IMG/VR virus record: IMGVR_UViG_2585427591_000001
Coordinates: 1-64,000 of that record
Length of the DNA stretch: 64,000 nt
Origin: a virus
Lineage: Duplodnaviria; Caudoviricetes
Strand: one strand, 5' to 3'
The notes below the pieces were generated by a model. It was not told where the DNA came from. It made no database searches and worked only from the letters and a program-made list of their open reading frames with translations. Made by a program: the position numbers and the translations under genes. Shown here in pieces: positions 6,119 to 60,832 of this stretch (the first letter of the stretch is position 1; every line of letters starts with the position of its first letter).

Positions 6119-6228
6119 ATGCGCATACCGAACACATTACGGATATCTGTTAAGCGCACAACATGCGCCTTTTGTGTGTACGTTGTGCATCTTACGGATA
6201 TCTGTTGTGCATCTCAAGTGCATCTGAA
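6119..6228. repeat. Array of ten degenerate octamers at an exact 11-bp period
   Basis: Octamers start at 6119, 6130, 6141, 6152, 6163, 6174, 6185, 6196, 6207, 6218 (ATGCGCAT, GAACACAT, GGATATCT, AAGCGCAC, ATGCGCCT, GTGTGTAC, GTGCATCT, GGATATCT, GTGCATCT, GTGCATCT). Confidence 0.8.
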
Positions 6229-6252
6229 AATTATCTAAACAGCAATTTTAAC

Positions 6253-6344: not shown

Positions 6345-6427
6345 ATCGGGCTGTAGCAAAATCTACAGTCGGGATTGACCTCCTGAAACTGCACAAGGCG
6401 ACACCAGACGCGCCAGCGTCTTTTTTA
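6345..6427 (+). promoter_or_regulatory. C4 target leader (a1/b1 sites) and terminator
   Basis: Hairpins plus TTGACCT (6375-6381) and GCACAAGG (6391-6398), which are complementary to C4 segments; GACGC-GCCA-GCGTC-T6 terminator. Confidence 0.75.
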
Positions 6428-6454
6428 TCGTCTGTATTCTTCGCACCCAAATTA

Positions 6455-6532
6455 TGGTGGGCTGAATGGGGGAGCTGCAAAGCTCGCCGGTTACCTTGTG
6501 CGCCGGTAAGGTCAACTCTGTTCAGCCCACCA
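6455..6532 (+). ncRNA. c4: C4 antisense RNA (P1/P7 immI type)
   Basis: TGGTGGGCTGAATGGGG...CTCTGTTCAGCCCACCA closing stem and GAGCT-GCAA-AGCTC hairpin. CCTTGTGC (6494-6501) and AGGTCAA (6509-6515) are complementary to the upstream targets and to downstream TTGACCT (6542) / GCACTCGG (6572, partial). Confidence 0.9.
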
Positions 6533-6588
6533 CCAGTTAGATTGACCTCTTCGGTAGTGGGATTGTTTTTCGCACTCGGAGGCTGCCA

Positions 6589-8228: not shown

Positions 8229-8277
8229 TCCCCTGATAGATCCTTCCCGCACAAGGCGGGGAGGATGCTTTTCACTA

Positions 8278-8639: not shown

Positions 8640-8993
8640 ATGCGAAACAACCACTTGCGTGGTGGTTCATCAAGCACGGCTTCGGCCACCGCGATTAGGG
8701 AAGTAGAAGTATCACCTGAAGTGAAAAGCACTCGTCTGGAGTTGCGGACCACGACAGACTTTAAAGAAAAAGTACGCTCTGCATCCGCTCTACTTGGGCT
8801 TGATATGAGTTCGTTTATTGTTTTAGCAGCCACGGATTTAGCTCAGAAAACGATGGATAACCAACGCATTCGTTTACTGACAGAAGAGGCTTGGGACAAA
8901 TTGAACGCACTGATTGATGCGCCTGTTGTTGAACGAGATGATGAACTGGAGCGGTTAATGCTGAGGAAGCGCCGTTATGTCGTCCGACAATGA
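8640..8993 (+). CDS. DUF1778 RHH antitoxin (TacA/AtaR/KacA family)
   Basis: KSTRLELRTT...ASALLGLDMSSFIVLAA...LTEEAWDKLNALIDAP...ELERLM. Confidence 0.85.
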   Translation: MRNNHLRGGSSSTASATAIREVEVSPEVKSTRLELRTTTDFKEKVRSASALLGLDMSSFIVLAATDLAQKTMDNQRIRLLTEEAWDKLNALIDAPVVERDDELERLMLRKRRYVVRQ

Positions 8994-9582: not shown

Positions 9583-9623
9583 TTAGTAACCGCGAGCTAC
9601 CAGGTCTTGCGTGTGTAATGAAG

Positions 9624-9654
9624 AAGGCTCAGCAATCTCTGCTGAGCCTTTTTT
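9624..9654 (+). terminator. Intrinsic terminator, possibly bidirectional
   Basis: AAGGCTCAGCA-atctc-TGCTGAGCCTT followed by TTTT. Confidence 0.8.
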
Positions 9655-9758
9655 CTTTTCTGCTTGAGGGTGAAGTTCTTATCTTTATTCAGTCGTAAAA
9701 ACACTCTTCAACTTCTCCGCGTTCTGCTGCCTTTTTCTCGCTTGTGTCAGTGAACCGG

Positions 9759-12044: not shown

Positions 12045-12330
12045 TTTGGAACGCGACCTTGAACGAGCGCTTCAACGTAACGCAGAGCTCGAAAACCTCT
12101 TATTTGGAGAAGTGCCCGTTATTACCTGCTGGCCGAAAGAAGTGGACGTGATTTTCGACCAGATACCCCGCGTTGGCAGTTTTCCGCCAGCGCATCAACA
12201 CCGCCTGAAACATCACATCAACCGGTTGTGGCTTGAGCGTAAAGCCGTTCCCACAATCGTAACAGTGGTGACTGAGCTTGCTGCCGTCATGGTTAAGGGA
12301 ATAGACAAGAATGAAAGAACTGATCGTTGA
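12028..12330 (+). CDS. Hypothetical phage protein
   Basis: AGGAGG RBS; overlaps neighbours. Confidence 0.75.
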   Translation: MATKADLERDLERALQRNAELENLLFGEVPVITCWPKEVDVIFDQIPRVGSFPPAHQHRLKHHINRLWLERKAVPTIVTVVTELAAVMVKGIDKNERTDR

Positions 12331-24694: not shown

Positions 24695-25110
24695 CAAAGC
24701 TAACGACAACGAAGGGACAGCGTTTAGAGCATGCAAACCAGCTGATCCAAATCATCTCCTCGCACGGCCGGCGATTCTTCTACTCAGACAAGACGAAGAG
24801 AACAGCCTTCTTTTTCCTCAACCATAACAGCCGTGTCTACTTTGTGGATGAATACACCGGCAAGGCCATTTATACCCACAAAACAACGTTCACGAATAAG
24901 TGGAGCGGATTTTCACACGGTGGAACGCTGCGTGCCCTGGTAGAGGCCATGCGGGATTACATCGTGAAAGGTACCCACCTGGATCCTTATGACCTGGGCC
25001 CGGAGCGGCGTAACACAGATGACGGAAATATCTGGGGCTATCCCACCGCCGTGCGGCGTGAGGCAGCACTACTGCCGATTATCATGAAAGATAAGGAATC
25101 ATCGTTATGA
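24691..25110 (+). CDS. Hypothetical phage protein
   Basis: ISSHGRRFFY...WSGFSHGGTLRALVE...NIWGY. Confidence 0.75.
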   Translation: MTKLTTTKGQRLEHANQLIQIISSHGRRFFYSDKTKRTAFFFLNHNSRVYFVDEYTGKAIYTHKTTFTNKWSGFSHGGTLRALVEAMRDYIVKGTHLDPYDLGPERRNTDDGNIWGYPTAVRREAALLPIIMKDKESSL

Positions 25111-25391
25111 TTGAGACAACAGATATCAAGGCGCTGCGTGAGGCGCACAACGTAGTTACCGTGACTATTTCCGGCCCTGTAGGGTGTGGGAAATCTGCCA
25201 TCTATGGCGAGCTGGAAATAGCCCTTCGTGCAATGGGCATTCCAGTTGTCCATGCCGACCCAAAGGCTGCTGATTACGAGAAGTGGGCCACTCATGCAGA
25301 CTGGGCTAGCGAGTTGGAAATCTATAACCCTACGGTTGTTTTGGTTGAGAAAATCGAAATTAACTCGAGTGCAAAAGGCGGCGCTCAATGA
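25107..25391 (+). CDS. Small protein with Walker A motif
   Basis: VTISGPVGCGKSAI. Confidence 0.7.
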   Translation: MIETTDIKALREAHNVVTVTISGPVGCGKSAIYGELEIALRAMGIPVVHADPKAADYEKWATHADWASELEIYNPTVVLVEKIEINSSAKGGAQ

Positions 25392-31770: not shown

Positions 31771-33266
31771 TGCCAAGTGGCCGCCGAAAATTACGCTCGA
31801 TTACAAGCGATCCTCGTTACCGGGAGCTGGTCATCAAATACCGGTACAACTGGGGGCTGGCCGCAGTCCACCTGTTTAGTAAAACCCCCACATGGCAACA
31901 AGATGAAATCTTAAATTCAGTGCAGGAGATGGCAAGCCGAACCACTGTTTCGTCCGGGCACGGTACGGGTAAATCAGACATTGCCAGTATTATGGTCATG
32001 CTCTTCCTCATCCTTTTCCCTAATTCACGCGTAGTCCTCGTCGCAACCAAAATCGGCCAGGTTAAAACCGGTATTTTTAAATACATCAGACAAAACTGGG
32101 CTGTTTGTACGCAGCGTTTCCCATGGCTATCTGAATACTTTGTGCTGACAGATACGGCCTTCTATGAAAAAACGCAAAAAGGGTCTTGGGAAGTTATTGC
32201 TAAAGGCTTCCGCCAGGGCAATGAGGAAGCGCTGGCCGGTGAGCATGCAAAGTACCTGCTGTACATAGTCGATGAAGCGTCAGGGGTGAATGATAAAGCG
32301 CTGGGCGTTATCCGCGGCGCACTCACACAAGAAGATAACCGCCTGCTGTTGACGTCTCAGCCTACACGTCCATCCGGTCACTTCTACGACTCGCACCACA
32401 CCCTCAAGAAGTACAAGGGCAATAAGAATGGTATTTACAACGCTATCACGCTTAACAGCGAGGATTCACCGCTTGTTACGCTAAACTGGATACGCGAAAA
32501 GCTGGCTGAATACGGTGGCCGTGACAGCCCCGAATACATGATCAAAGTCATGGGCATGTTCCCATCGAATATGTCTGATTACCTTCTTGGCCACGACGAG
32601 TGTGATCGCGCTGTACGGCGCAAAGTAAAACTCAAGAAGGGCTGGGGCTGGATGGCGTGCTGCGACGTTGGGAACGGTCGGGATAAGTCAGTTATCGGTA
32701 TCTTCAAAGTGTCCGGGTCGCGTGAGAAGCGCCGTGTAGTTCCACACCGCGTCTTGGAGATGCCCGCTGGTGTGGACCCGGTAAAATTCGCAGAAATTAT
32801 CGTGGCTGAATGCCGACATTCAGTGTATCCGAACATCAGTATTGTCATAGATGGAGATGGTGTTGGGGCGGATACTGCCACTCTTGTAGAGCGCGCCGGC
32901 ATGCCCGTTCAGCGCATCAGATGGGGTAAGCGCATGCACTCAAAGAATGACAAATCACGTTTCATTAATCAGCGTGCGTGGGCAAATATCATGGCCCGTG
33001 ACGCGCTGCGTAGCGGCCGCCTGCGACTGGATAACAATCCACTTACTGTTGAACAGGCATCAAAAATACCGGCAATGCTGAACGAACTCGGCCAGTGGCT
33101 CATCATGAAAAAAGAGTACATGCGCACTAAGCTGAATCTCAAATCTCCAGACCGATGGGATGTGTACTGTTTCTCGTTTATCGCGAACTATGTCCCCGCA
33201 AACCAGGACAACTTCTACGATAGTGACGAAGACAGAGAGGCGCGCGAGTATCTCAATGCCGGCTAA
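31770..33266 (+). CDS. pacB: Terminase large subunit PacB
   Basis: SGHGTGKS Walker A, IVDEASG Walker B, CDVGNG and KSPDRWD nuclease motifs. Confidence 0.95.
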
Positions 33267-34072
33267 GCCTGATCATTGTCATTTTTGGCGCGGGTGAGCC
33301 GGGCTTTATATGACTTATGTTTCTTTTCGGCGCGGCGAACGTCGCGGATATTCTCTTGATAATCGCGCGTTGCAGCTTCAAGCGTTTCAAGGTCATAGAT
33401 TTTCTTGTTGATAAACGCGGCGCAAGGAATTGGATTTATTTCAGAATAAATGGAGAATCCTGGGTTTTCATCACCGTTCGTCACGCCTGAACGATCCAGG
33501 TCTTTCTCGCGTATGAATACACCATGGGAGGGGACGTGAATCTTCTGTGGTTCGCTATTTTCGTGAAAGTAAATATTCATCATCATGTCGCTAAAACCTT
33601 CATGACGAATACGAAATTTCGCTTCCGGGTCGTACTTGCCGAATCGTTCTAAATCAGCAGCAATTGCCGCATGCAATGTTGTGTCGCCAGTCTTAATAGC
33701 ACGGCTCAACGCGTAATTAAGCATGCTGAATAATTTTTCACGCGTAACTGTTTTGGAGTCCACTGCTTTATAGGTATACACCCGCGCAGCCCTGACATTT
33801 GTGAAAAGCAGGGGGAGTGGGTAAATGTCTTTTGAAGTCGTTGGGTATCGCTTCGGATCAGCTTCGAGCAGGGTACTTGCGTATGTTTCCCATTCCTTGA
33901 TTTTACCGGCCCAATACTGAAACTTTTCTTCGGAAACGACTACAACGGGCCTGAATTCAATACCAAAAGAGTCCGCGTCGGTAAAACTTGCAGATTCCAG
34001 TGCTTCAGCTTCAAAGTCGCTTTTGAAAACGATAAACGATTTGTATGTAGTTTCAGTTTTGGTTCTTAACAT
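33263..34072 (-). CDS. c1: Primary repressor C1
   Basis: [30 protein letters not shown] and KIY motifs match recalled P1 C1; convergent with pacB as in P1. Confidence 0.9.
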
Positions 34073-39669: not shown

Positions 39670-40627
39670 TCAGTTCTTTCTACAGCAGTTGACGATAAAC
39701 GGCCATGAGGTCCCGCCGGCGCTAGCTATATCGATGACGTATATCGAGACGGCCGATATGTCAGGTCCTCAGCTTCTGCTTGTGCTGCGTGACGGTACCG
39801 GCACGCTGATTGATAACGTGGGCATTAAAAAGGGTTCGGTCATTACTGCAAGCCTGGGGGATCCCAGCGGCCTTGGCGGCGTGCTGTTCAATGAAACGTT
39901 TACCGTTATCAAAGCGCCAGCAGCCTCCGATCAGATAACTATAATGGCGTTTTCTCAAAGCGTGTTTAACATGAAAACCCCCGCCGTTACGCCGCGATAC
40001 TTCAAAGACAAGCCACCAATCATCGTTCTAAATACCCTTGCGCCTGGGCTTAAAATCAGCGCGGACTGCTTCCGCCGCCAGGGAACGTATCACTTAAATA
40101 CCGGTCAGAAACCGTCGCAACTATTCCGGGAGATAGCACGGGATCACGGCGCATTACTTTTCTCTTGCCGCGGCGCGCTTACCGCCAAAAGCCTGACGAC
40201 ACTGGCTGGTGCTAAACCGGCGATCACATATGAAGTGAATAACCCCGCCGCGGAGTTCTCATTCTCGCGCTTTAGCAGCATCAACAGCGACGATGACGAC
40301 CACAATGCCCGGTATGTCGGCTATTCAATGACGGATGGCTACAAAGGCGCGCAGGGAGAGCAAAGCGGACCCATTTCAATGCATTCCATCCCTTCGCAGG
40401 GAGCGCTCAATAATCAAAATAAATACCTTCAGCCGAAGTTTGACGCGGAATGCATCGGAAACGGCCAGTTGACGCCTGGCCTGGTTGTGGGCGTCAAAAT
40501 ATTTCGCTATGACGATGAGAACCGTATTGATGAGTCAGTGCCGGCCATCATGATTGTTTCACGCGTAGCGCACCACGTTGACCGGTTCAGTTACATGTGC
40601 CGCGCAGTATTAGGAGTAGTGCAATGA
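39662..40627 (+). CDS. P1 gp6-like baseplate hub protein
   Basis: TYIE...GPQL...D..G, TYHLN.G.KPS, DES.P; synteny. Confidence 0.75.
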   Translation: MVDQFFLQQLTINGHEVPPALAISMTYIETADMSGPQLLLVLRDGTGTLIDNVGIKKGSVITASLGDPSGLGGVLFNETFTVIKAPAASDQITIMAFSQSVFNMKTPAVTPRYFKDKPPIIVLNTLAPGLKISADCFRRQGTYHLNTGQKPSQLFREIARDHGALLFSCRGALTAKSLTTLAGAKPAITYEVNNPAAEFSFSRFSSINSDDDDHNARYVGYSMTDGYKGAQGEQSGPISMHSIPSQGALNNQNKYLQPKFDAECIGNGQLTPGLVVGVKIFRYDDENRIDESVPAIMIVSRVAHHVDRFSYMCRAVLGVVQ

Positions 40628-41457
40628 GCAAGGAATATTCATTTAACGGACAGTACCGGGCACGCGTTATCAACACTGTTCACCCGGAAGGCTTAATGAT
40701 GGCCAGCGTGCGCGTTGAGGCGCTTACAAAGGGCGTCCCGGACAACGATTGTCCCTGGGCAGAGTATCAGCTCGATATCGGCGGGGCTTTTGCGCCCACT
40801 ATTGCCGGCGACTTGGTTTGGGTAGATTTCCCCTACGGCGGTGACACACGACGACCGCGTATTATCGGCGCGGCACAGGATGCCAACAGCGGGCAACCGA
40901 ATGTACCGCCGGAAAGCTGGGGCGGCGGTGACGCCTATCAGCCGCCAGAGGTAGAAGGCGCGCCCCCGCTGCGGGAGTTAAACACGACCAAGGATTATGT
41001 GTCTAAGCGCAATGGCTTGCTCGAAGTGCGTACCAGTGGTGGCGGGTGGAGCGTAACGCACATCGACTCTGATACCACACTTGGCATGAACGAGTCAGGC
41101 CAGGTCTATATCATCACGACGCAGGACGTATTTGTTAATGCTGCAAAGGGCGTAACAGTGAAATCCGGTATCGATATCGACGTTGAGGCCGTTTCCAACA
41201 TCACGATCAAGGCTGGCGCTAATATCACGCTCGAAGCCATGGGGGACATCACGATGAAGGCCGGTGGTAACGTCTCAATTGATGCAAAAGAAGGTACTGA
41301 TATTACGTCTAAAAAGGCTACTACCATCGATTCAGGGACAACCACAGAGGTAACATCCGGGGTAACAACGGAGATTACTTCGGAAATGAATACTGACATC
41401 AAATCCGGCGCGCTTTTCAGTTCCACAAGTAAGTTGGTGACGTTTAACAGAATTTAG
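40624..41457 (+). CDS. Baseplate spike gp5 (OB-fold plus beta-helix)
   Basis: GQYRARV, PWAEY, GDLVWVDFPYGGDTRRPRIIG; C-terminal 8-aa repeats. Confidence 0.88.
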   Translation: MSKEYSFNGQYRARVINTVHPEGLMMASVRVEALTKGVPDNDCPWAEYQLDIGGAFAPTIAGDLVWVDFPYGGDTRRPRIIGAAQDANSGQPNVPPESWGGGDAYQPPEVEGAPPLRELNTTKDYVSKRNGLLEVRTSGGGWSVTHIDSDTTLGMNESGQVYIITTQDVFVNAAKGVTVKSGIDIDVEAVSNITIKAGANITLEAMGDITMKAGGNVSIDAKEGTDITSKKATTIDSGTTTEVTSGVTTEITSEMNTDIKSGALFSSTSKLVTFNRI

Positions 41458-41491
41458 CCCCCTTCCCCCTGAGTGCGCGGTGCTACCAGAA

Positions 41492-41622
41492 CCGTGCACA
41501 TCACAAGCATCCCGCGACCATAAAATGAATATACAAAGTGCATTCAACGCACACACCTTGTGTGCATTTTAATCACACAAGATGCATTCATTATGCGCAT
41601 AAAATGCACATAAAAGATGCAT
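41492..41622. repeat. Array of about 12 degenerate octamers at an 11-bp period
   Basis: Starts at 41492, 41503, 41514, 41525, 41536, 41547, then 41560, 41571, 41582, 41593, 41604, 41615 (e.g. AAGTGCAT, ACGCACAC, GTGTGCAT, ATGCGCAT, ATGCACAT, AGATGCAT). Confidence 0.75.
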
Positions 41623-41713
41623 GCCAGCACGCGCGTTAATTATCATTCTTAGCCACAGAATTATTGCCAAATGAGACGCTTACGGATGCCAAACCCGCCC
41701 TTATTGTTTACGA

Positions 41714-41759: not shown

Positions 41760-42050
41760 ATGACTAAATTCACTGAAAAAACATTAAGCAGAAAGGCGCT
41801 GGTCATACTCGTCCGCACTAACAGCGTGGCTAAAGCGTTGCTTGTTGGCGCTGAAGAGGAAAACGAGCGCATGGCATATGAAATCAAAATTCAACTGAAG
41901 CACAGCGCACACCCGCACTATGTCATATCAAAAGAGGGTCAGCGCCGCTGCTGGCACAGTTCTGATCAGGCTATTTCATTCCTGAGAGGTGTTGGGATTC
42001 ATTGCATTAATATTCAGCTGCCAGTTACAGAAGGAACTGACGATGAGTAG
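41760..42050 (+). CDS. Hypothetical protein, possibly DNA-binding
   Basis: RRCWHSSDQAISFLRGVGI motif; overlaps the methyltransferase gene. Confidence 0.7.
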   Translation: MTKFTEKTLSRKALVILVRTNSVAKALLVGAEEENERMAYEIKIQLKHSAHPHYVISKEGQRRCWHSSDQAISFLRGVGIHCINIQLPVTEGTDDE

Positions 42051-43281
42051 GCCTTCATATCAACTGCATGTCGGAGATTGTGAAGACGTTCTGGAAGGAT
42101 TCGCAGAGAACTCGATAGACGCGCTTGTGACTGATCCCCCCTATGGGTTGACCGAACATTTAGATAAAAAGGTCATGCGTGACGTGCTGGCGCATTGGCT
42201 AAGTGGTGACGACTACCTGCATACCGGCGGTGGTTTCATGAATAAATCCTGGGACAGCTTTGTCCCCGCGCCAGCTGCATGGGAAGCGGCATACCGCGTC
42301 TTAAAACCGGGTGCCTGGTGCGCAATATTTGCGGGTAGCAGGACACAGGATCTGATGGGCATTTCCCTGCGCCTGGCCGGATTCGAAATCATGGACACAG
42401 GTATGTGGCTATACGGTTCTGGCTTTCCGAAGGCGCTCAATATATCAAAAGCTATTCGCAAGGCCTGCGGAACAGAAGCCCCTGAGTGGGAAGGCTTTGC
42501 AACGGCATTAAAGCCTGCCTATGAGCCGTTTATCCTTTGCAGAAAGCCACTGGAGGGAACCTACGTTAACAACATCCTCAAACACGGCGTAGGCGCAATG
42601 AACATCGGAGCGTGTCGCGTCCCTACGGGAGAACGGCTCAACGGCGGTGCCGGTGGCCAGCTATCAAATATTCGCGATGGTGACATACCGCAAGGCATCG
42701 AGTGGATGCAGGCGCAAGGTGGCCGCTGGCCGGCGAATATACTTCACGACGGCAGTGATGAAGTTCTCAGCGTGTTCCCGGCTAAAGCTGGCGCCGCTGC
42801 CCCCGTGCGCGGTACCGAACCGTCAACTGCCGGGGATGGAATGATCATGGGGCAGAGGAAAAGAGTAGCCACGTATTTTCACGGTGACTCTGGCAGTGCC
42901 GCCAGGTTCTTCTATTGCGCGAAGGTTACAAAATTCGAACGTGATGAAGGGATGGAGAGGTTTATCCCGGTAGTCGCAGGCGAAATGGTTGGCGGCCGCA
43001 AAGAAGGCAGTGTAGGCATAAACACGCCCAGTGCTGGCGCTGGCCGCACTGGTGGTGCCCGTAACACGCACCCGACAGTTAAGCCTAAAGCCCTAATGCG
43101 TTTCATCTGCCGGCTGGTCACGCCACCGGGAGGTAAGATTCTGGATATGTACACAGGATCTGGAAGCACGGGTTGCGGGGCGCTGGAAGAAGGGTTTAGC
43201 TTCGTGGGTATCGAGCGAGACCCGGATGATGTTGTGACGGCCAGCGCGCGCATAGCATACGCGTATAAGAATCTCGCTTAA
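42043..43281 (+). CDS. Orphan N6-adenine/N4-cytosine DNA methyltransferase (beta class)
   Basis: VTDPPY near the N-terminus; HPTVKP and LDMYTGSGSTG near the C-terminus. Confidence 0.93.
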   Translation: MSRPSYQLHVGDCEDVLEGFAENSIDALVTDPPYGLTEHLDKKVMRDVLAHWLSGDDYLHTGGGFMNKSWDSFVPAPAAWEAAYRVLKPGAWCAIFAGSRTQDLMGISLRLAGFEIMDTGMWLYGSGFPKALNISKAIRKACGTEAPEWEGFATALKPAYEPFILCRKPLEGTYVNNILKHGVGAMNIGACRVPTGERLNGGAGGQLSNIRDGDIPQGIEWMQAQGGRWPANILHDGSDEVLSVFPAKAGAAAPVRGTEPSTAGDGMIMGQRKRVATYFHGDSGSAARFFYCAKVTKFERDEGMERFIPVVAGEMVGGRKEGSVGINTPSAGAGRTGGARNTHPTVKPKALMRFICRLVTPPGGKILDMYTGSGSTGCGALEEGFSFVGIERDPDDVVTASARIAYAYKNLA

Positions 43282-44026: not shown

Positions 44027-44782
44027 ATGCTTGAGCAAGCGTACCAGGAAGAAGCATTTTTCGCGTTGCGAGCCGCGGGCGGGTTAACGCCTCCTTCTTC
44101 TGCCCAGCTTTATCAGCAATCCATAATGCTGATTCAAAAGCTGGCAGATGAATTGATCAGCCTTACTCCAGAGTCAGTCATCTATCCCGCGTCGCTAGCA
44201 GACGAGCTAAGCCGCATTGATGCCGTGGTTGAGGTTTTGACAGATTCGATTCCAACAATAGAGAAAATGGTAAAGCTGATTAACGAACAATCGTCATTAT
44301 CTGCGCTTGTTCGTCTGCAAATCGGCTGGGATCTGTATTGCCGCTTATATGACGTGGCGGACGGCTTACCACCGGCAATGACGGAAGCAATAGCCGATGT
44401 AACTACCCCGGCCGCTTTGGTAGAACTACTTCGCTCCATTTCGACTGAAGATATAAAGCAGGCTTTTGCACTGCTCAATAACTATCTGATTGCATCAGCG
44501 CCAGCCACCCCGCTGCCGGGATCAGTAGTGACTGAGATTACGCAGGTCATAGACACGTTTATCAGCGACGTAGCGCCGCTCGATGGGTTGATTGCGACAG
44601 TTCAGCGCGATTATTTCGCCGCGGTAAATAGCCTCGGCCTGGCATCGTCTACGTTCAACGATGCCGTGACCGTCAGTCTTCTGGATACGCTGACCAATCC
44701 CCCTGCAAACAGCGTCTCTGAGGCAGTCAAAAGTGTCACGCCACCAGCAGTTATCAGCATTCTGGAAAATAGCAAATTCTGA
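44027..44782 (+). CDS. upfB: UpfB-like virion protein
   Basis: YQ..AF..L.AAGG, YP and LQIGWDLYCR match recalled P1 UpfB. Confidence 0.78.
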   Translation: MLEQAYQEEAFFALRAAGGLTPPSSAQLYQQSIMLIQKLADELISLTPESVIYPASLADELSRIDAVVEVLTDSIPTIEKMVKLINEQSSLSALVRLQIGWDLYCRLYDVADGLPPAMTEAIADVTTPAALVELLRSISTEDIKQAFALLNNYLIASAPATPLPGSVVTEITQVIDTFISDVAPLDGLIATVQRDYFAAVNSLGLASSTFNDAVTVSLLDTLTNPPANSVSEAVKSVTPPAVISILENSKF

Positions 44783-50868: not shown

Positions 50869-51489
50869 ATGGGCCTACTTCTCGATCCTTACGCCATTGT
50901 TGCTCCTATCAAAGACTCCGGCCGCGTATTAGGCGCGATTGACCGAATCGGCAGCCTTTCAACGATTTTCAGTTCATCTATCCCAACCGCTGAAATCCTC
51001 TACTGTAAAGGGCTGGCGCGCCAGTTGGTGCGTATGCGCTTTGCACAGGGCTGGGAATGGGCAATCGATGTGGAAGGTTTTCCCGGACTCGATATGTTCG
51101 TTAAAGACGTGACATATGGCGTGGGTTCAATAGAGACAGAAGAGAAACGGATCGGCGGTGGCGTTATCAATAAACCAACGCACAGGAATGCGGGGACCGT
51201 CACGATGGTTGCGCGTGACACAAAAGAAGGCCTTGTTGGCACCTGGTTCGACGCATGCAGCTCAAAAGTCGTTAACCGCGACGGGACCGTCAATTTGCCA
51301 GCTGCATACCTTCTTACGCTTCGCATTTATAAGCTACTCGATGGCGCGTTGTTGCCAGAAGGCGTATGGCGCGTCATTCCAACTGAGCGCGGCGAGATAT
51401 CCCGTGCGCGTGATCAGATCGGTGAGTTTCATTCATTCCCGATGACCTTTAATAAACACAGCACATTCGACGTGCTGGGGGTTATGTGA
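50869..51489 (+). CDS. tub: Tub (tail tube initiator-like)
   Basis: FAQGW, KDVTY, IGGG.I..PT.R..G, N.DGT.N.P..YL, ARDQ..EF.SFPMTF. Confidence 0.85.
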   Translation: MGLLLDPYAIVAPIKDSGRVLGAIDRIGSLSTIFSSSIPTAEILYCKGLARQLVRMRFAQGWEWAIDVEGFPGLDMFVKDVTYGVGSIETEEKRIGGGVINKPTHRNAGTVTMVARDTKEGLVGTWFDACSSKVVNRDGTVNLPAAYLLTLRIYKLLDGALLPEGVWRVIPTERGEISRARDQIGEFHSFPMTFNKHSTFDVLGVM

Positions 51490-52355
51490 TGTCGATACCT
51501 GAGTTCCCCCTACCCTCCCGCCCTACCCATAAAATCAACTTCCGCGAACCGGACGTTCAAACAGGCATGCGCTTCTGCGACATAAACGAGGCATTTGAAG
51601 AGAACGCGACGACTGAATATCTCAATCTGCTTCAGATAGGCACACTCTCGGATAGCAGATTCTGGACGGCGCAGGACCGGCGCACGGCGCTATGGTGGAT
51701 ATACCTGTTCTCGCAGACGGACCCGACGATCACAGTCAAGTACGATTGCTCACACTGCGGCGAGGCACACTACTATGACTGCGATATGAGGCTGCTCGAC
51801 GAAGAAGCCACTTATCTTGAGCGCGAGCCCTCAATTCAGGTAACGATGAATGCCGCAGGTGAATCCTATGAATGGCTGCTTGTGCCACTCAACGGCGTAG
51901 CCATGGAGAACCTTGAAAAAATGCGCAGCCGTCTGCCGGAAGATATCGACTCTGCAGAATATAAACGGGGGCTGGCAGACTTAAGGATCTGGGAGTTGGT
52001 TTATCAGGCCAGACTTTTTTACGACCTCGACCCGGCTTTTGATGCGGCTGCTAACAGGCGATATGACTTAGTGCAAACAATGTCACTCGATATTGAATTC
52101 ATACACTTTGTTGCGCGCATTTCCCAGGCGCAGCAAGTACTGAAACATGGGCTGAACATGCAGTTTGACGACGGCCGGGCGATGCTCATTTTACCAAAGC
52201 ACTATTGCGACGCAGATAAGGCCAAGGAGGCAGGAAGACCCTATACGCGTCTCCTGCTTGGCTTTCGGAATATCTTCTTCCTGCCAAATTCTGGATACGA
52301 TTGGCTGGCAGATTTTAGTGAACAACCTGACCCTATACGCTGGCCAGTCGATTGA
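51486..52355 (+). CDS. pmgB: PmgB (baseplate/tail assembly chaperone-like)
   Basis: FPLPSRPT, WTAQDR.TALWWI, CSHCG..HYYDCDM. Confidence 0.88.
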   Translation: MMSIPEFPLPSRPTHKINFREPDVQTGMRFCDINEAFEENATTEYLNLLQIGTLSDSRFWTAQDRRTALWWIYLFSQTDPTITVKYDCSHCGEAHYYDCDMRLLDEEATYLEREPSIQVTMNAAGESYEWLLVPLNGVAMENLEKMRSRLPEDIDSAEYKRGLADLRIWELVYQARLFYDLDPAFDAAANRRYDLVQTMSLDIEFIHFVARISQAQQVLKHGLNMQFDDGRAMLILPKHYCDADKAKEAGRPYTRLLLGFRNIFFLPNSGYDWLADFSEQPDPIRWPVD

Positions 52356-52469
52356 TGGAGTGTTGTCTTCGAGCATAAGAACGGCATTTCAACTCAATAG
52401 CTCGCTGGAAGAGAAGTACAAGAAAAAAACGTAATCAGACGTTCTTAGTAAATTTTACTGATATTTAAA

Positions 52470-52554
52470 TTGCGCATTCAATACACATCACATGCACATT
52501 CAAGGTGCATTAAACATGCATTAAGCGTGTATTTTTTACACTTAAAAGATGCAT
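52470..52554. repeat. Array of eight octamers at an 11-bp period
   Basis: Starts at 52470, 52481, 52492, 52503, 52514, 52525, 52536, 52547 (TTGCGCAT, ATACACAT, ATGCACAT, AGGTGCAT, ACATGCAT, GCGTGTAT, TTACACTT, AGATGCAT). Confidence 0.8.
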
Positions 52555-52623
52555 ATAACGTGAAGATTGTATGTGTTCAGTTTCTTTACGAAAGCCCATC
52601 ATTCATCATTAAAGGATAATCAG

Positions 52624-52695
52624 ATGACATCAAAACCAAGAAAAGTGTTTACGCTCATGAAGGCAATATGCCGGTTTTTAAGGTTGATCAAATAA
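52624..52695 (+). CDS. Putative 23-aa cationic amphipathic peptide
   Basis: AAGGA RBS; MTSKPRKVFTLMKAICRFLRLIK. Confidence 0.4.
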   Translation: MTSKPRKVFTLMKAICRFLRLIK

Positions 52696-52758
52696 TATCC
52701 CCCTATTGATTCACAGCACTTAGAGCCTCACATCACAAGTGAAAGGGATGAGTAGCGC

Positions 52759-52931
52759 ATACGCATTACATGCATACGAAAAATGCACGTAATGCGCCTT
52801 TAAGGTGCACGAAATGGGCGTTAAGTGCACCAAAAATACATCAATAAAATGCATTAAATGCACATTATAAACGCACTTATAATGCATGTAAGGCTCATAA
52901 CACACACACTTTGAATGCATAACATGCACAT
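52759..52931. repeat. Array of sixteen octamers at an exact 11-bp period
   Basis: Starts every 11 bp from 52759 to 52924 (ATACGCAT, ATGCATAC, AAATGCAC, ATGCGCCT, AGGTGCAC, ATGGGCGT, GTGCACCA, ATACATCA, AAATGCAT, ATGCACAT, AAACGCAC, TAATGCAT, AGGCTCAT, ACACACAC, GAATGCAT, ATGCACAT). Confidence 0.85.
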
Positions 52932-53180
52932 ATTAGCCATCAAAGGGCTGTATCCGGCTTAAATCTACATTCCTTAAATGGCAGCGCAGGGCGCTTTTCA
53001 ACACCAGTTTGTGCCAAAAACATTCCTCCAACACAATAAAACCTAGACAAACCCTACTTATACCAGTTAAGCATTGTGGCAGTTGTTTGCCCTATACACG
53101 CAGAAGGTGTAAGATTGGGGAGCGGATAACCCGCGCTTATGAATACTCACGAATACTGCGACTGAAGAGGGCTTAGGTCC

Positions 53181-53816
53181 ATGCCACAAAAACTGCTGAA
53201 TGCTAGTAAAGTTATCGAACTTTTCGCTCATCTGAACGAAACGCCGGATAACCGCGCTCTGTTTTCTGAGTTAGTGAACGGCGTTGATGTGACCGATGAA
53301 ATTCCCGCTTTGGCGCTGGCGCCAGGTTATCGTGTCGTGCGTGTTGATAACGGCAAGAAAGATAAGATTTCACAAGACCATTTCGAACTGGCCCTTGTAA
53401 ATGATCTGTCTGAAGAGGTTGTGTATTACAACCGCGTTATCTTCCAGCCGGATGCATTCCTGAATTGTCGTCCAGTTACACAGATTCTTGTGTGGCGTAC
53501 TCAGAAGCGTCAGCACCGTGCCGTGTTGCATGATCTCGCAGGAATTATCTTCTTCGATTACCTGTTAGAAAAATACGACGTGCTCGTATCTGACAGAAAC
53601 CAGACAACTGACGGGACCAGCTTCTGGCAAGCGCGCTTATATGACGCACTGGAATTCAAACATCATCTCTACAGATATGACATGATCACATGTGAACTGC
53701 ATGAAATGAGGAATGAGGAAGAACTGGAAAAAGGAAGCACATGGTTGTGGGGTGAACCTGAGCACTATCAGGACCGGCTAGCCATCATTTCTAAGTTCCC
53801 GTTACCGAAACAGTAA
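53181..53816 (+). CDS. Stand-alone accessory (moron) protein, possible GNAT-like fold
   Basis: Own promoter TTGCCC-17-TAAGAT (53087-53115) and terminator; TQILVWR and VSDRNQTTDGTSFW motifs. Confidence 0.75.
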   Translation: MPQKLLNASKVIELFAHLNETPDNRALFSELVNGVDVTDEIPALALAPGYRVVRVDNGKKDKISQDHFELALVNDLSEEVVYYNRVIFQPDAFLNCRPVTQILVWRTQKRQHRAVLHDLAGIIFFDYLLEKYDVLVSDRNQTTDGTSFWQARLYDALEFKHHLYRYDMITCELHEMRNEEELEKGSTWLWGEPEHYQDRLAIISKFPLPKQ

Positions 53817-53826
53817 CGCACCCTTA

Positions 53827-53851
53827 AAGCCTCGCTAAGCGGGGCTTTTTT
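53827..53851 (+). terminator. Intrinsic terminator
   Basis: AAGCCTCGC-TAA-GCGGGGCTT followed by Ts. Confidence 0.75.
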
Positions 53852-53881
53852 GTATCTGCAATTCAGTGATTATCCCTCCGC

Positions 53882-53902
53882 GCGGTTCACAAAACTTACA
53901 CT
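53882..53902 (+). promoter_or_regulatory. Putative Lpa-dependent late promoter of sit
   Basis: GCGGTTCAC-6 bp-TACACT. Confidence 0.8.
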
Positions 53903-53930
53903 GCCTCATTACTTTTGAAGCGGTGACATC

Positions 53931-56900
53931 ATGGCAGAATCAGACGGCAAACCATCAGGAAAGAACGTCAAAGACGATCTGCTTGATGCTTCACGAATTA
54001 TCAAAACGATAGAGCGCACAAGTAAGAAAGAACTTGATGTACTTCTGAGCATTGATAAAAAACTGGAAGAAGGGGAGGGTGGTAGGTCAGACACGCAAGG
54101 AACCGCTGATAAGCGCCAGCCACGGCAACGTGAAGAGCGCGAGCCACCAGCCCCTCGCCGCCCACGCAAAGAACGCAATCAGCCCCCGGAGATTAAAGAC
54201 GACACCATCAGCGTGCGTAAAAAATCCCGCCGGACTGCATCAGCTACTACTGAGCCAGCCACACAAGAGCCAGGTCCGCCAGTTTTACGCCAGCGCCAGA
54301 AGCGTGAATCAAGACAAACACCGGAATCGAAAAGCCCTGAGCAACTGACCGTTCGTGCCGCACCTGCAAAACGACCATTACCGCCATCCCCCCAAACCCG
54401 GCCACGCCGTGATAGTGGCGGCAAATTCACAAGTTCTGCAGATAAGTCGAAAGAAAATCGTGATGATGCCCGGCACAAAGAGGCAATGAACGAAGAGGAA
54501 AAGAGCCGTTCTGTATTCCAGCGCATCGGGGACATGGTTAAAAAAGCAGATACGAAAGAGATAGAAGGCACCGCGCTGGACGCAGCCGGCGTGGCCGCTG
54601 GCGGCACATTCTGGAAAGCAGGCAAGGAAGCCATTGAACTGGTAAAAAACACTGCGAGCATGCTGAAACTCGGTAATGAAGATGATGAAGACGAGAAGAA
54701 AAATGGAAAATTCTTCGGGAAAATTAAAAAACTATTCAGCAAAAAACCTCCGACCGTTACCCCCGTTGATGATAATCCCACACAAGAGCGGCCAGCTGGT
54801 GCTGGTATAGGGAAGGGGCGCAATCCTGCCGCAATCATCAGTGCCGGTACAGCACCAGCCAGCCCGGCTGGTATCGGGCTTAAAGGTGCAAAAGGCGCGC
54901 GAGCCAGCGCCACGTCTCTCGATGTCACTAACAGAAACATTCAAAAGCTCAATGTTGAAAAAACAGAAGAACAAACGGCCGCGATTAACGAAGGCAATCA
55001 GCTGATCGTTGAAAAACTCGATGATTTACTTAAAGCCCAGGGAGGGAATGGGGGAGGGGGCGGCGGTCTTTCCGGGCTTATCGGTAACGCGTTGACGCTT
55101 GGCGCAACAATGTGGGTATCAAAGTTCGGCAAGAAACTCTTGGCGGGGATCCTGAGCGGCCTAGGACTCGGAGCATTAAAAAAACTCCTGCCAGGGGGTG
55201 GCGACGGTGGCAGCGACATCGACGGTCCCGACAAAGACAAGAAGAAAGGAAAAGGCAAAGGGAAGGGAACGCCACGCAAGAAGAGCGGGAAAGGACTATT
55301 CAAGACTATCCTGAAAACCGGCAAAAACGTCGCTAACCCCGCCGCCGCCGTTGCGGGTACTGCAGCCGTTGCGACTGCCGGAGTCGTGTATGCAAACAGG
55401 GCGAATGTGGACCCTGTAGGGGATACGTCGGACGCGGACGCAAAAGAGAAAACCAAATCACAGGCCAAAGCCTCAAAGAACAGTGCTCAAAGTGCAAAAC
55501 CAGCGAAAGCAGGCGAAACAGTGAAAGTTGGCCGCGTCGCAACGCCGGAAGAGATCGCAGCACGGAAGGCGGGTAAACCTATTACGGCAGCAACAGGGGA
55601 AGTTGCAGAAATAGGCGCGGCGAGGGTAGCTGAAAAGGGGGGGGTAAAAGCCGGTGAAAAGGCTGCGGCAAAAGTGGCGGCTAAGGGCGCGTTAAAACTG
55701 GGCGTAAAAGCAATACCGCTCGTAGGGACCATTGCCGGTGTGGGCATTGATGCAGTGGAGGGAATCACTGACACGGAAGGCCAAAAAACTGCATTTGGGC
55801 TTGGTGAAAAGGACGACGTATCTAATCGCCAGGTTGCTGAATACACGGCCGCAAATGTGTTGAATATGGGCGGGCTTGTGTCCGGGGGTGCTGGCTACCT
55901 TTCAAAAGGTGCTGACTGGCTGGGGATGGATAAAACAGCCGACTTCCTGGATTTTGATACCGCCGGCATGGCGCGGGGCATTCACGGCCTTACAGAGACA
56001 ACTAAAGATACGATATCAAGCATTAATAACGGAATTTATGGCGCGGCCACCAGCGCGGCCGGGTGGCTGGGCTTTGGCAAAGACAAAAAAATGAGTGACT
56101 CAGATAAGAAACAGGCTGAATCGCGCGAAGACGAACGTACTAAAACACTCACGGATACGATTAAAACAGGCGCTACAGGCACTATAGGCGCTATCGAAGA
56201 TATGAGTAAGAGCATGCTCGACGTGCTCATTCCAAGCGCTGCTGCATCCGTTGATGCGCCTGTTACGCCAGTTCAGGGCATGGGTATGTCCAGCCCCCTG
56301 CGGTTCACTCCTTCCCAGCCAGACTCAAACACAGTATCTCCTGCGTTGAACATCGGCGGCAGGAACGCGAATGTTCGTTCGTTCCGTAACAACAACTTCG
56401 GTAATGTGAATTTTGCGGGCCAGGAAGGCGCACAGCTAGAAAAAGCAAACGCAAATGGTGAACAACGTTTCGCGAAATGGAATACCCCAGAAGAGGGTAT
56501 GCGCGGCCTGGCTAATCAATTGATGCTTTACTCAACGGGCAAATCTAAGCACGGCCAGGCCAAGTCGATAGACAAGATCCTCGACATTTTTGCTCCAAAT
56601 AGCGAAAACAATACTTCGAAATATAAAGCTGATCTGGCTGGCGCATTGAACGTATCTCAGACAGACGATCTGAAACTTGATGATCCGAAAGTCATGACAA
56701 AGGTCATCCGGGCAATTGCCACGCTTGAAGGCGGCAACCCGCAGGTAAAAGACGAGTTCATTCAGAAAGCCATTGGCGGGTACGACTATTCGAAAGGGAA
56801 ATGGGAAGGGAAGTTCAACGCAGAAACGCTGGCGATCGTTAACGAACAGCGTAAAGCGAAAGGACTTGAGCCTATCACCGAAAGCGATCAGAACAGCTTC

Positions 56901-57704
56901 TCCGGGTTGGCTGGTACGTCGTCTTCTACCACCGCGGCAAGTAAAGCCGCTCCATCTCCTGTTACAACTTCACCAGCGCCTAAGCCGTCACCTGAGCCTG
57001 TACAGCATGCGCAGGCGGCGAAGAGGAAACAGGATGTAACACCCCCCCCTGTAATACCACTCCCAGCAAATGCGGAAGGCATGCGCCCGGCGGCAGGGGC
57101 TAAGCAAGCGCGCGATGAACCGAAACCGGCTTCAACCAATGCCCATTTATTCAGAAACGCCCAACTGCCTGAATCCGGCTTCGGAATCTTTGACGGCGCA
57201 ATTGAATCAATGGCCAGCAAGGCCGCGAGCGCCGAAGGCATGCGCAGGCCAATAACCGGCGGTGAAAATGCCGGCTTGCGCGCCGCGAAGAGCCAGGGCA
57301 GCATCAGTGAGGCATGGAAGCGTGACGAAGAAGAGAAAAAAGCCGCTAAAGCCCATGCATCACAGGTACCGGCCGCCGCAAAACAGGTGGCGTCTTACTC
57401 ACATCCGCAAAACATCATGTCCGTTACTGACCTGAGAACCGTTCCTGCTGCAAATGTGCCGGCACAATCCAACACGCAGCAAAACCAGAACCAAAATCAG
57501 GCCCAGACGCAGATAGACGCAAAAATGCTGGCGGCGCTGAACAAAATTGCCGGCTTGCTGGAAGACCTGAAAGACGGTCAGAAAAAAGAGGGTAACAGCG
57601 GGCGGGGCACTTTTGTTAAAAACACAGCACAACCCGCGCCGCGTACAACCATCCCGTTAACTATTGCTGATCCGGCAATGGACCGGCTCGCGGCGGACAG
57701 ATAA
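53931..57704 (+). CDS. sit: Tape measure / injection protein Sit with a lysozyme-like domain
   Basis: 1257 aa, Ala/Gly/Lys-rich; RNNNFGN...RFA...EG...FAP..ENNT..Y domain; lies between pmgB and pmgA. Confidence 0.85.
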   Translation: MAESDGKPSGKNVKDDLLDASRIIKTIERTSKKELDVLLSIDKKLEEGEGGRSDTQGTADKRQPRQREEREPPAPRRPRKERNQPPEIKDDTISVRKKSRRTASATTEPATQEPGPPVLRQRQKRESRQTPESKSPEQLTVRAAPAKRPLPPSPQTRPRRDSGGKFTSSADKSKENRDDARHKEAMNEEEKSRSVFQRIGDMVKKADTKEIEGTALDAAGVAAGGTFWKAGKEAIELVKNTASMLKLGNEDDEDEKKNGKFFGKIKKLFSKKPPTVTPVDDNPTQERPAGAGIGKGRNPAAIISAGTAPASPAGIGLKGAKGARASATSLDVTNRNIQKLNVEKTEEQTAAINEGNQLIVEKLDDLLKAQGGNGGGGGGLSGLIGNALTLGATMWVSKFGKKLLAGILSGLGLGALKKLLPGGGDGGSDIDGPDKDKKKGKGKGKGTPRKKSGKGLFKTILKTGKNVANPAAAVAGTAAVATAGVVYANRANVDPVGDTSDADAKEKTKSQAKASKNSAQSAKPAKAGETVKVGRVATPEEIAARKAGKPITAATGEVAEIGAARVAEKGGVKAGEKAAAKVAAKGALKLGVKAIPLVGTIAGVGIDAVEGITDTEGQKTAFGLGEKDDVSNRQVAEYTAANVLNMGGLVSGGAGYLSKGADWLGMDKTADFLDFDTAGMARGIHGLTETTKDTISSINNGIYGAATSAAGWLGFGKDKKMSDSDKKQAESREDERTKTLTDTIKTGATGTIGAIEDMSKSMLDVLIPSAAASVDAPVTPVQGMGMSSPLRFTPSQPDSNTVSPALNIGGRNANVRSFRNNNFGNVNFAGQEGAQLEKANANGEQRFAKWNTPEEGMRGLANQLMLYSTGKSKHGQAKSIDKILDIFAPNSENNTSKYKADLAGALNVSQTDDLKLDDPKVMTKVIRAIATLEGGNPQVKDEFIQKAIGGYDYSKGKWEGKFNAETLAIVNEQRKAKGLEPITESDQNSFSGLAGTSSSTTAASKAAPSPVTTSPAPKPSPEPVQHAQAAKRKQDVTPPPVIPLPANAEGMRPAAGAKQARDEPKPASTNAHLFRNAQLPESGFGIFDGAIESMASKAASAEGMRRPITGGENAGLRAAKSQGSISEAWKRDEEEKKAAKAHASQVPAAAKQVASYSHPQNIMSVTDLRTVPAANVPAQSNTQQNQNQNQAQTQIDAKMLAALNKIAGLLEDLKDGQKKEGNSGRGTFVKNTAQPAPRTTIPLTIADPAMDRLAADR

Positions 57705-59497: not shown

Positions 59498-60832
59498 ATG
59501 GAAAAAGGATGGCTCCGCGCAAGGTTGACCCCGGAGAAGCGTAAATCGCCGCTTTGGTGCGGGCTTGCTGACGCGATTGAAAGCCTGGTATCTGAAGTCG
59601 TAGAGCCCATTCTCAAGCGTATCGATGATCGGAAATCATTCTATACAATGGATGAGCGTGACCTGGACCGCCGCATTGCTGAGCTCGGGCAGTTCTTCGC
59701 ATTGCGTACGGCATCATCAACAAGTAAACCCCTGTTGCTGACGCAGCGACTCGATGAAATTCACCTCAAAGACACTGACCAACCGTTGATCAACACCTTC
59801 TGGCGGGAATTCTACGGCCTTAAAGTCGCATGGTCCCCTTACTGGGCTCCGATAGACCAGGAGAATTATCCGTACGGACGGCTTTTCACAGTGGAAACAG
59901 GGAAAGACGAGGCTGAATTACTTTACGGCGAGATGTTTCTGACGTCGCGCGGGGTTATCGCGCTAAACCTGGCTGATGTATATGAAATATACGGTGATGC
60001 AGGCACGTCGATGGCAATAATGGAATTGCTGAATGACTTTGAGTTGTACATCACCCCATTATTACCCCGGCACATCGTATTTGACGGGGTTGTGATCACC
60101 TTGGAGGTGACGCTTGTCGAGCGACCTGAGTATATCTGGCTTGAGGAAATCGAAGGCTATTTGCATGAGCCGGTGACGCTGAAAGAGCGTGAGGAAGTCA
60201 TTTCAGTTGAAATTGATACGGAAATCGGACCTATAGGCTTCCTGCCAGTTGCCCCCACGCACCGCAGTGATGTTTTTCGTTATGACGACATCCCGGCTGA
60301 CGCCTGGATAACAGACGTCTGGCGCGCGCCGGATCTCTTCGAACCCGGTGTTTACATCATCAAAGATGATCCGGGTGAAGTCGAGATTGGTTTCACGCCG
60401 GAGAATGAAGGAAATGAACTCCAGTATGTTGCTACTGAAGAGCGGCAAGACATCATCGAAACAAATGCGATGGTGGAATTAGACATATCGTTTGAGCCCA
60501 TCCCGACTACGTTTAGTACTGGCGAGATCGCTTATTTTGACAAAATCCCGGCTGACGCTTGGATAACTGACCTATGCTTAGTACCTGATATTCACGAACC
60601 TGCCGTAAATCTTCTTTATACGAATTCTTTGTCACTAATAATTAAGCCGTCGCCACGTATAACGTCGAATGTTCTATTTGAAGTGATTAAGCCGTTGCCG
60701 CGCCTGAATGCTAATTCCTTATCTGAAATAATTAAGCCGTTACCACGTATCAATTCAAATGAATTATCTGTAATGAAAAAAGGATCTCCGCAAATTCATA
60801 ACAGTGTACTTTCAATTATGAGGCAAATATGA
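59498..60832 (+). CDS. Baseplate protein gp16-like with an extended, repetitive C-terminus
   Basis: WL..RLT..K.KSPLW, ELGQFF, QRLDEIH.K, FLTSRG, LP.HIVFDG; duplicated DDIPADAWITD; 15-aa repeats. Confidence 0.85.
   Translation: MEKGWLRARLTPEKRKSPLWCGLADAIESLVSEVVEPILKRIDDRKSFYTMDERDLDRRIAELGQFFALRTASSTSKPLLLTQRLDEIHLKDTDQPLINTFWREFYGLKVAWSPYWAPIDQENYPYGRLFTVETGKDEAELLYGEMFLTSRGVIALNLADVYEIYGDAGTSMAIMELLNDFELYITPLLPRHIVFDGVVITLEVTLVERPEYIWLEEIEGYLHEPVTLKEREEVISVEIDTEIGPIGFLPVAPTHRSDVFRYDDIPADAWITDVWRAPDLFEPGVYIIKDDPGEVEIGFTPENEGNELQYVATEERQDIIETNAMVELDISFEPIPTTFSTGEIAYFDKIPADAWITDLCLVPDIHEPAVNLLYTNSLSLIIKPSPRITSNVLFEVIKPLPRLNANSLSEIIKPLPRINSNELSVMKKGSPQIHNSVLSIMRQI
60623..60805 (+). repeat. 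Four 45-nt (15-aa) tandem repeats in the gp16 C-terminus
   Basis: ATTAAGCCGT at 60641, 60686 and 60731; SLSLIIKPSPRITSN / VLFEVIKPLPRLNAN / SLSEIIKPLPRINSN / ELSVMKKGSPQIHNS. Confidence 0.85.

Follow-up and report, generated by a model that had tools for sequence, protein, structure and literature searches.

The stretch of DNA considered here, hereafter the window, is the first 64 kb (64,000 nucleotides) of IMG/VR record IMGVR_UViG_2585427591_000001, a complete virus sequence of 86,652 bp that carries direct terminal repeats, and the element from which it comes is a P1-like phage-plasmid. Between its PmgB-like gene (51486..52355, plus strand) and a 211-aa gene (phrog_1349, function unknown; 53181..53816, plus strand), which is followed by the gene for a Sit-like tail transglycosylase (53931-57704), lie two blocks of short repeats in 11-bp phase: array A (52470..52557), with eight clear units, and array B (52759..52934), which with 16 units is the largest of the genome. 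A spacer of about 200 bp (52558..52758) separates the two blocks. Two comparable repeat tracts are present elsewhere in the window, namely array 1 (6119..6239) and array 2 (41494..41625). The unit is composed of an alternating purine-pyrimidine core (ATGCACAT, ATGCGCAT, ATACACAT and the shorter palindromic ATGCAT and GTGCAC) and a mostly A/T spacer, and the consensus over the 24 units of arrays A and B reads A-T-R-Y-R-C-A-T-T-A-A. The exact octamer ATGCRCAT occurs nine times in the window, six of these within the arrays.

An earlier reading made from the sequence alone (the sequence-only reading) had described 11-bp-phased octamer arrays of 8 and 16 units at this locus, along with like arrays near 6119 and 41492. 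Both descriptions are borne out: rows of 11 bp align the units, and the identity at lag 11 is 0.52, 0.44, 0.45 and 0.47 in the four window arrays, as against 0.25-0.28 in shuffled sequences (z 4.4-4.7). Among 2000 dinucleotide-preserving shuffles per array, none reached the observed identity at lag 11 and at most two did so at any lag from 4 to 30; lags 22, 33 and 44 likewise rank among the top lags in the arrays. The scans of the whole replicon that the same reading had called for, by autocorrelation and by weight matrix, recovered the arrays. A motif-blind sliding scan of all 86,652 bp (110 bp, mean of lags 11, 22 and 33 above 0.40) yielded six stretches, five of which are arrays (6100-6298, 41483-41635, 52404-52607, 52703-52972 and, beyond the window, 73689-73872), the sixth (69093-69244) being an array of GATC units of the P1 oriR type. 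At periods 7-10 and 13, no scan window in the genome exceeded 0.42. Period 12 gave 243 windows above 0.42; its six stretches above 0.40 all fall outside the arrays.

With respect to the bipartite copy, the two blocks proposed from the sequence alone are indeed present, but they are not in register with each other, since the distance from 52470 to 52759 is 289 bp, or 26 x 11 + 3. Similarly, the eight units assigned to block A are the clear ones, but a matrix trained elsewhere (see below) finds all 11 of its 11 register positions positive. In composition, the arrays are A/T-rich (32-41% G+C versus 49.8%), and alternating purine-pyrimidine octamers are 17-fold denser in the five arrays taken together than elsewhere (57.9 versus 3.39 per kb), a composition that favors unusual DNA geometry. 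No flanking sequence is common to the arrays; hence, we rejected the notion that they are copies of one mobile cassette because their flanks are not shared.

The fifth array, which lies outside the window at genome positions 73725-73812, has eight units and ends 55 bp before the start codon of a parA gene. The sequence-only reading had recommended a search beyond the window for partition genes next to another array, and precisely such a gene, next to an array with the same motif, is found here. The cassette spans genome positions 72715-73670 on the minus strand. Its first gene codes for a 216-aa deviant-Walker-A ATPase with the motif KGGIGKT at residues 10-16, which is matched by the Pfam families AAA_31, VirC1 and CbiA and aligns with positions 1-203 of 203 of the NCBIfam model ParA_partition (E 3.4e-23, 82.3 bits). 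The parA stop codon overlaps the start codon (TAATG) of a 101-aa open reading frame (ORF), P0001, which is the candidate centromere-binding protein (CBP). A small Walker ParA without an N-terminal DNA-binding domain, a small partner gene directly downstream and repeats upstream of parA are the features of type Ib systems, and on this layout, ParA and the 101-aa gene product are to be classed as a type Ib partition cassette. Accounts of type Ib loci place the centromere/operator repeats upstream of parA (PMC5016525), and the array here is placed alike.

The window arrays are linked to this cassette by a weight matrix that was trained only on the eight parA-proximal units and summed over six units in 11-bp phase, with a null of 19.0, the maximum over 30 Markov-simulated genomes. 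In the whole 86,652 bp, it rises above 19.0 at five places only, namely at the training array itself and at 6117-6248, 41492-41625, 52435-52589 and 52747-52944, the last four being the window arrays, where it scores 27-44. Arrays A and B score 28.9-42.1 by strand, and 27 of their 29 register positions are positive (11/11 in array A, where the phased-matrix peak is 52435-52589, and 16/18 in array B). With 10/13 in array 1 and 11/14 in array 2, positive register positions amount to 48/56 in the window arrays, as against 5.2% of all 11-mers in the genome. The window arrays hold about 48 units versus the eight at parA, that is, about six times as many.

Taking these findings together, we consider it probable that the type Ib partition system of this phage-plasmid has its cognate DNA sites in the arrays, which would be dispersed centromere/operator arrays bound by the CBP. 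The window arrays are most likely extra docking sites for the partition protein because their repeats match those in front of the parA operon. Under this proposal, CBP dimers would bind one unit per helical turn, the unit being an 8-bp core plus a 3-bp A/T spacer, and would, along each array, cooperatively cover a single side of the DNA. The repeats before parA would serve as operator as well as centromere, the role that such repeats have at other type Ib loci; the four window arrays would be further sites of this kind, scattered at distances of 11-35 kb, by which the partition complex, the stimulator of nucleoid-bound ParA, might become larger or more numerous. Lying, as they do, upstream of the immI (c4/ant) and methyltransferase operons and of the tail genes at sit, the arrays may also give the CBP an influence on these. 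The sequence-only reading had envisaged a multi-site centromere bound by a small ribbon-helix-helix (RHH) or winged helix-turn-helix protein. The extra array at the par genes and the matrix link agree with this picture, but the RHH fold is only suggested. Where that reading had looked to a motor of the ParM or TubZ type (type II or III), the motor is instead a small Walker ParA of type Ib, and the search of the genome for ParM came back empty.

The ParA-CBP pair is the only partition module found in the genome. P1 ParA and ParB gave no tblastn hits at E <= 0.01, neither ParM/StbA_N (PF06406) nor ParB_N (PF02195) had a match at E <= 1 in the complete genome, and only one ParA-type ATPase is encoded. 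Accordingly, neither the combination typical of type Ia (a large helix-turn-helix [HTH] ParB with ParB_N and a large ParA) nor the actin-like ParM of type II was found. The contrast with P1 and its single parS that the sequence-only reading had drawn also holds: P1 is without these arrays, and the present genome is without a P1-type ParA/ParB. Between repA and the par cassette there is a 965-aa protein with a ddrB-like domain of the ParB superfamily (genome 69447-72344; L005 5447-8344, plus strand); it has no ParB_N match and is, hence, not a partition ParB. Two further identities were considered for the arrays. They were set aside as replication iterons, oriR and RepA having been identified elsewhere, and were rejected as operators of primary immunity, as a C1 homologue is present (33263..34072, minus strand; 28.6% identity to P1 c1, E 2e-25) and the arrays go with the par cassette rather than with the backbone of the phage.

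The candidate CBP belongs to a sizeable family. An exhaustive search with P0001 returned 24 further representatives (25 rows including the query), and with its conserved C-terminal 50 residues, tblastn matched 1300 plasmid records; a k-mer protein search, for its part, returned only the CBP itself. In all six plasmid loci inspected, and in three IMG/VR loci, a ParA gene lies directly upstream of the CBP gene. Many copies in RefSeq plasmids are labelled “molecular chaperone GroEL” (e.g., L001 2051-2365 and L008 1848-2156), which appears to be an annotation error for a partition protein that has been passed on between records. The CBP is also encoded in 82 phage records, all of Vibrio, none of which is among the 23 phage records that bear PmgB. 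The AlphaFold2 (AF2) model of the protein, built on its relatives, is disordered at residues 1-50 and extended at 51-57, with helices at 58-69 and 77-91. The type Ib partners ParG, Omega and pCXC100 ParB have the same layout, and their RHH domains are described as not predictable from sequence (PMC3074162). Two leads from a structural atlas, to Antitox_RHH (0.91) and to a cluster of the ParG type (TM 0.59), stayed under the threshold of that tool. On these grounds, the C terminus of the CBP is probably an RHH fold, as yet unconfirmed. Further, the five CBPs whose unit contains GGAT/ATCC have a strand segment of the form hKA[IV] (LKA[VI] in three and IKAI in that of the IMG/VR record G001, with that of L011 not aligned), and the three with ATGCAT/ATGTACAT-type units are without that strand lysine. 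This is no more than suggestive of a DNA motif that follows a lysine in the presumed recognition strand. Literature searches, from whose coverage subscription journals were mostly absent, returned no paper on the CBP family or on dispersed type Ib arrays in P1-like phage-plasmids.

Among P1-like elements that carry the cassette, arrays away from it were found in four of four, with partly syntenic positions in three, and none were found in P1 and Cronobacter phage JK004, which have a ParAB of type Ia and lack the CBP. P1 and JK004 had no period-11 windows even when the threshold was lowered, and they scored 8.5 and 6.1, respectively, with the window matrix. The Enterobacter kobei plasmid NZ_CP156932.1 has a CBP 35.6% identical to P0001 behind its ParA gene, with an 11-bp array upstream; with a matrix made from this array, 11 more arrays exceed the null computed for that plasmid. 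Among them are sites upstream of an immI-type operon, as with array 1, the two operons being alignable at isrK/C4, and one some 100 bp upstream of the gene for a protein 39% identical to that of window ORF 41760-42050 (96 aa). Another group of at least four occupies the sit-pmgB gap, preceding each gene of an accessory island. Thus, four array positions are common to the two elements (upstream of parA, of immI and of the 96-aa gene, and in the pmgB-sit gap), although their DNA is not alignable by megablast. G001, whose PmgB is 50% identical, has six further arrays, three of them far from the cassette and one beside a baseplate-hub gene like array 2, and the Citrobacter freundii plasmid NZ_CP145667.1 has one distant array. 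In these two, the arrays around the cassette have a different unit (GGATGTAC / GTACATCC). Left out of the counts were period-11 signals from GGTTG-rich repeats that lie toward sit from the par cassette, at 7648-7939 in G001 and, within the annotated sit gene, at 25071-25325 in C. freundii.

The phasing extends to the wider family. In the ten cassettes compared (from Vibrio, Yersinia, IncK2/Z, IncI2, IMG/VR and P1-like elements), 11 bp was in every case the best period in the range of 5-15 bp within the 160 bp upstream of parA, while the repeat units differ from cassette to cassette. The period-11 score was reached at the best period by more than 2% of mononucleotide shuffles in three of the ten, namely E. 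kobei (82 of 500) and the Vibrio loci L007 (25 of 500) and L012 (11 of 500). The IncK2/Z and IncI2 cassettes (L008 2150-2570; L009 1160-1230; L028) have arrays downstream of the operon as well as upstream, and in the IncK2/Z plasmid a ParM/ParR pair comes right after the downstream arrays. These comparisons bear on the alternative that the arrays are recognized by some other factor, such as a host nucleoid protein or a different regulator of the phage, or that they work by the shape of the DNA alone (curvature or alternating tracts prone to form Z-DNA), with the array at parA as just one more member of the set. The 17-fold density of alternating octamers, the A/T richness of the arrays and the unconfirmed fold of the CBP would speak for it; yet arrays occur in all four cassette-bearing P1-like elements examined and in neither P1 nor JK004, all ten cassettes have an 11-bp array upstream of parA even though the motifs differ between cassettes, and the phage has its own C1 repressor. 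We consider this alternative highly improbable.

The pmgB-sit gap itself is a variable insertion spot in P1-like relatives. In P1 it measures 81 bp (44411-44491), whereas in the window (52356-53180) it contains arrays only, in E. kobei (L001 25205-30808) a 5.6-kb accessory island with a lipase-family gene, and in G001 (about 6500-9666) and C. freundii (L022 25538-27050) the par cassette itself, with arrays upstream, between the two genes and downstream. One could accordingly imagine that the bipartite array at 52470-52934 is the decaying, functionless relic of a par cassette that once sat in this gap between two arrays and was then lost or moved, given that the G001 and C. freundii cassettes lie exactly there with arrays around them and that the corresponding place here has an array on either side of a 200-bp spacer. 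However, the spacer has no remnant of a parA or CBP gene (tblastn at E <= 10 gave chance rows only), and arrays A and B match the parA-proximal array in score, unlike what decay would leave. Moreover, E. kobei keeps at least four arrays in the same gap, and arrays 1 and 2 would stay unexplained. We therefore give the relic scenario very little credence. The spacer shows no significant RNA fold on either strand (z -0.16 and +1.48); it holds a 23-codon ORF (52624-52695, plus strand) with an AAAGGA motif 7 nt upstream.

The neighborhoods of the other arrays raise the matter of gene regulation. Array 1 lies about 110 bp upstream of isrK (6350-6426) and the C4 antisense RNA (6450-6537), which were identified with Rfam and form the start of an immI-type (c4/ant) operon (6350..6537, plus strand). 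A second C4 copy is found at 5664-5757, and array 1 sits between the two copies. The C4/isrK RNAs precede antirepressor genes (6589-8228), making up an immI-type region like that of P1. Array 2 lies between a baseplate-hub gene (40597-41457) and the 96-aa gene (41760-42050) that heads a methyltransferase operon. The window has two distinct DNA methyltransferase genes, at 12311-14035 and 41989-43281, the second of which belongs to the operon that follows array 2. From the ends of arrays 1 and 2, it is about 75-135 bp to a conserved TTGACG hexamer or the downstream start codon, and promoter and terminator scans around all arrays gave results no better than those for shuffled sequences. The CBP may regulate the neighboring genes: the conserved placement of arrays upstream of the immI and methyltransferase operons argues for such an effect, and the distance to the likely core promoters and the uninformative scans argue against it.

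Such placement can be taken further, to the view that the window arrays are operators only, with the CBP as a global repressor of phage operons (immI c4/ant, the methyltransferase operon, sit and accessory genes) like Omega of pSM19035 and the parA-proximal array as the sole centromere. Two diverged phage-plasmids do have arrays upstream of the same operons, in that of E. kobei every accessory-island gene in the sit-pmgB gap has one ahead of it, and RHH partition proteins are described as repressors whose sites overlap promoters (PMC9499535, PMC5016525). Arrays 1 and 2, however, stop about 75-135 bp short of the hexamer or start codon and leave the likely core promoters uncovered, the promoter scans are uninformative, and 16 units are far beyond what a repressor needs. 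The pSM19035 arrays, as described, serve both purposes, so that a pure operator is not the default (PMC9499535). Hence, we regard this view as unlikely. More speculatively, the CBP might be a second, plasmid-state regulator of a P1-type prophage, which would couple assembly of the partition complex to the silencing of lytic functions, with sites 11-35 kb apart gathered into one folded complex. It would do so by coating the one-turn-phased arrays that diverged relatives keep in the same places: ahead of the c4/ant immunity operon, ahead of an early methyltransferase operon and within the late tail operon. We float this idea as a doubtful one; if it were true, such a layer of control by a CBP would be absent from P1 itself.

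Against our interpretation of the arrays as sites of a type Ib partition system, several observations have to be weighed. The CBP matches no Pfam or NCBIfam family; Pfam ParG (PF09274) has no match in the genome at E <= 10 and matches none of the 25 family members at E <= 1; PDB sequence and profile searches with the CBP gave chance-level rows only; Foldseek of its model against the PDB gave no matches; and the mean pLDDT of the AF2 model is only 69.5. The covariation of strand lysine and motif comes from eight systems that are not phylogenetically independent, and the matrices of this genome and of G001 partly cross-recognize each other's arrays, which makes the differences in specificity modest. 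As for ParA, its 82.3 bits are below the curated ParA_partition cutoff of 180, and it has no PDB relative at E <= 0.001. The sample of P1-like elements comprises only four with the cassette and two controls, and the literature that was searched holds no binding or stability data for the CBP family. Finally, the operator role of the window arrays is unsupported by position because arrays 1 and 2 are off the likely core promoters, upstream of them, and promoter-like sites are no commoner than in shuffles.

The backbone of the element is that of P1. Its PmgB and RepA are 44.5% and 48.8% (tblastn) identical to those of P1, and it encodes, besides the C1-type and Sit-like proteins, PacA/PacB-like terminase subunits and a Cre-type integrase; repA adjoins a DnaA box and five GATC units in an array of the P1-oriR type. 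At the DNA level, megablast with positions 51000-55000 found nothing near-identical in the phage or plasmid collections, and the best match to its PmgB elsewhere, at 61.8%, is in E. kobei plasmids; PmgB-bearing plasmid records number 673. The window further has an Hcp-family type VI secretion gene (4645-5139, minus strand), as does the E. kobei relative, and a tandem repeat at 60637-60774 (45-bp unit, 3.1 copies, 68% match) in or beside ORF 59498-60832.

P1 is the textbook phage-plasmid, with a single parS and a large ParB that are the model for type Ia partition. In this genome and at least three others, the P1 partition module is replaced by a small ParA and a CBP family that is without a Pfam model. 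One-turn phasing has been described for the centromeres of type II ParR, not for the type Ib systems studied, which have periods of 7, 8 and 9 bp. With their scatter over conserved positions in a phage genome, the long arrays offer a concrete system for asking why some replicons multiply their centromeres and whether partition proteins also regulate prophage genes. They also predict incompatibility determinants for this group of phage-plasmids, and the finding would correct what appears to be a widespread misannotation as GroEL.

A close parallel is the Delta/Omega system of pSM19035, which is of type Ib like the one here; as described, its small Walker ParA has a partner that is likewise small and flexible at the N terminus, and there are several separate arrays on one replicon (PMC9499535, PMC5016525). 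In the published account it has six parS sites of 7-10 heptads, which act as centromere and also lie over promoters (PMC9499535). Its heptads are contiguous 7-bp repeats, whereas here the 11-bp units make one helical turn, the distances between arrays are 11-35 kb and the array with the most units is remote from the par genes. The host here is also a P1-like myovirus prophage, and its CBP showed no sequence relation to any solved RHH partner. The ParF/ParG system of TP228, with parH and OF, likewise pairs a small ParA-family ATPase with a small partner that has an unstructured tail. Its centromere, of approximately 100 bp, is reported to lie upstream of the operon and to consist of degenerate short boxes with A/T-rich spacers (PMC3130281, PMC5016525). 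This parH is one continuous site of tetramer boxes, as against the five sites of octamer units in 11-bp phase found here.

The type Ib system of the IncI plasmid pESBL, which was demonstrated by experiment, is described as having a 100-aa ParB that lacks a recognizable motif and binds octamer repeats both upstream and downstream of parAB, and dual arrays upstream and downstream are also reported for pB171 (PMC7602700). The pESBL repeats follow one another without gaps at a period of 8 bp and, as far as that locus was read, occur only on the two sides of the operon, unlike the dispersed 11-bp arrays here. Nor are pESBL ParB and the CBP homologous (BLASTP E 0.53; hhalign probability about 1%). 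The sequence-only reading gives the iterons of plasmid R1 as 11 bp long. The parC/ParR/ParM system of R1 has short iterons bound by a small RHH protein, much as is proposed here, with a site described as split into two blocks around the promoter (PMC5016525). The system here differs from that of R1 in its Walker ParA motor, in the absence of ParM and in having five loci rather than one. In the case of N15, another phage-plasmid, the centromere sites IR1-4 are reportedly scattered over the genome. As here, there are several separate natural sites, four in number, which are served by SopAB (PMC7205306). N15 differs in being of type Ia, with a large HTH SopB and single inverted repeats in place of arrays of phased units. 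P1 too differs in being of type Ia, with one parS next to parB; the backbone, the oriR-type GATC array and the DnaA box are common to both elements.

In geometry, the proposed arrangement of one dimer per helical turn is closer to the superhelical complex of type II ParR than to the 7-bp repeats of Omega, the 9-bp repeats of pCXC100 or the 8-bp repeats of pESBL, as these systems are described (PMC3074162, PMC5016525, PMC9499535, PMC7602700). Multi-site type Ib centromeres, as in pSM19035, and multiple natural centromere sites in a phage-plasmid, as in N15, were already known. What is new is the CBP family, for which no characterized member was found, the one-turn phasing across the whole of it and the occurrence, in a P1-type genome without the P1 partition module, of long arrays scattered over conserved positions.

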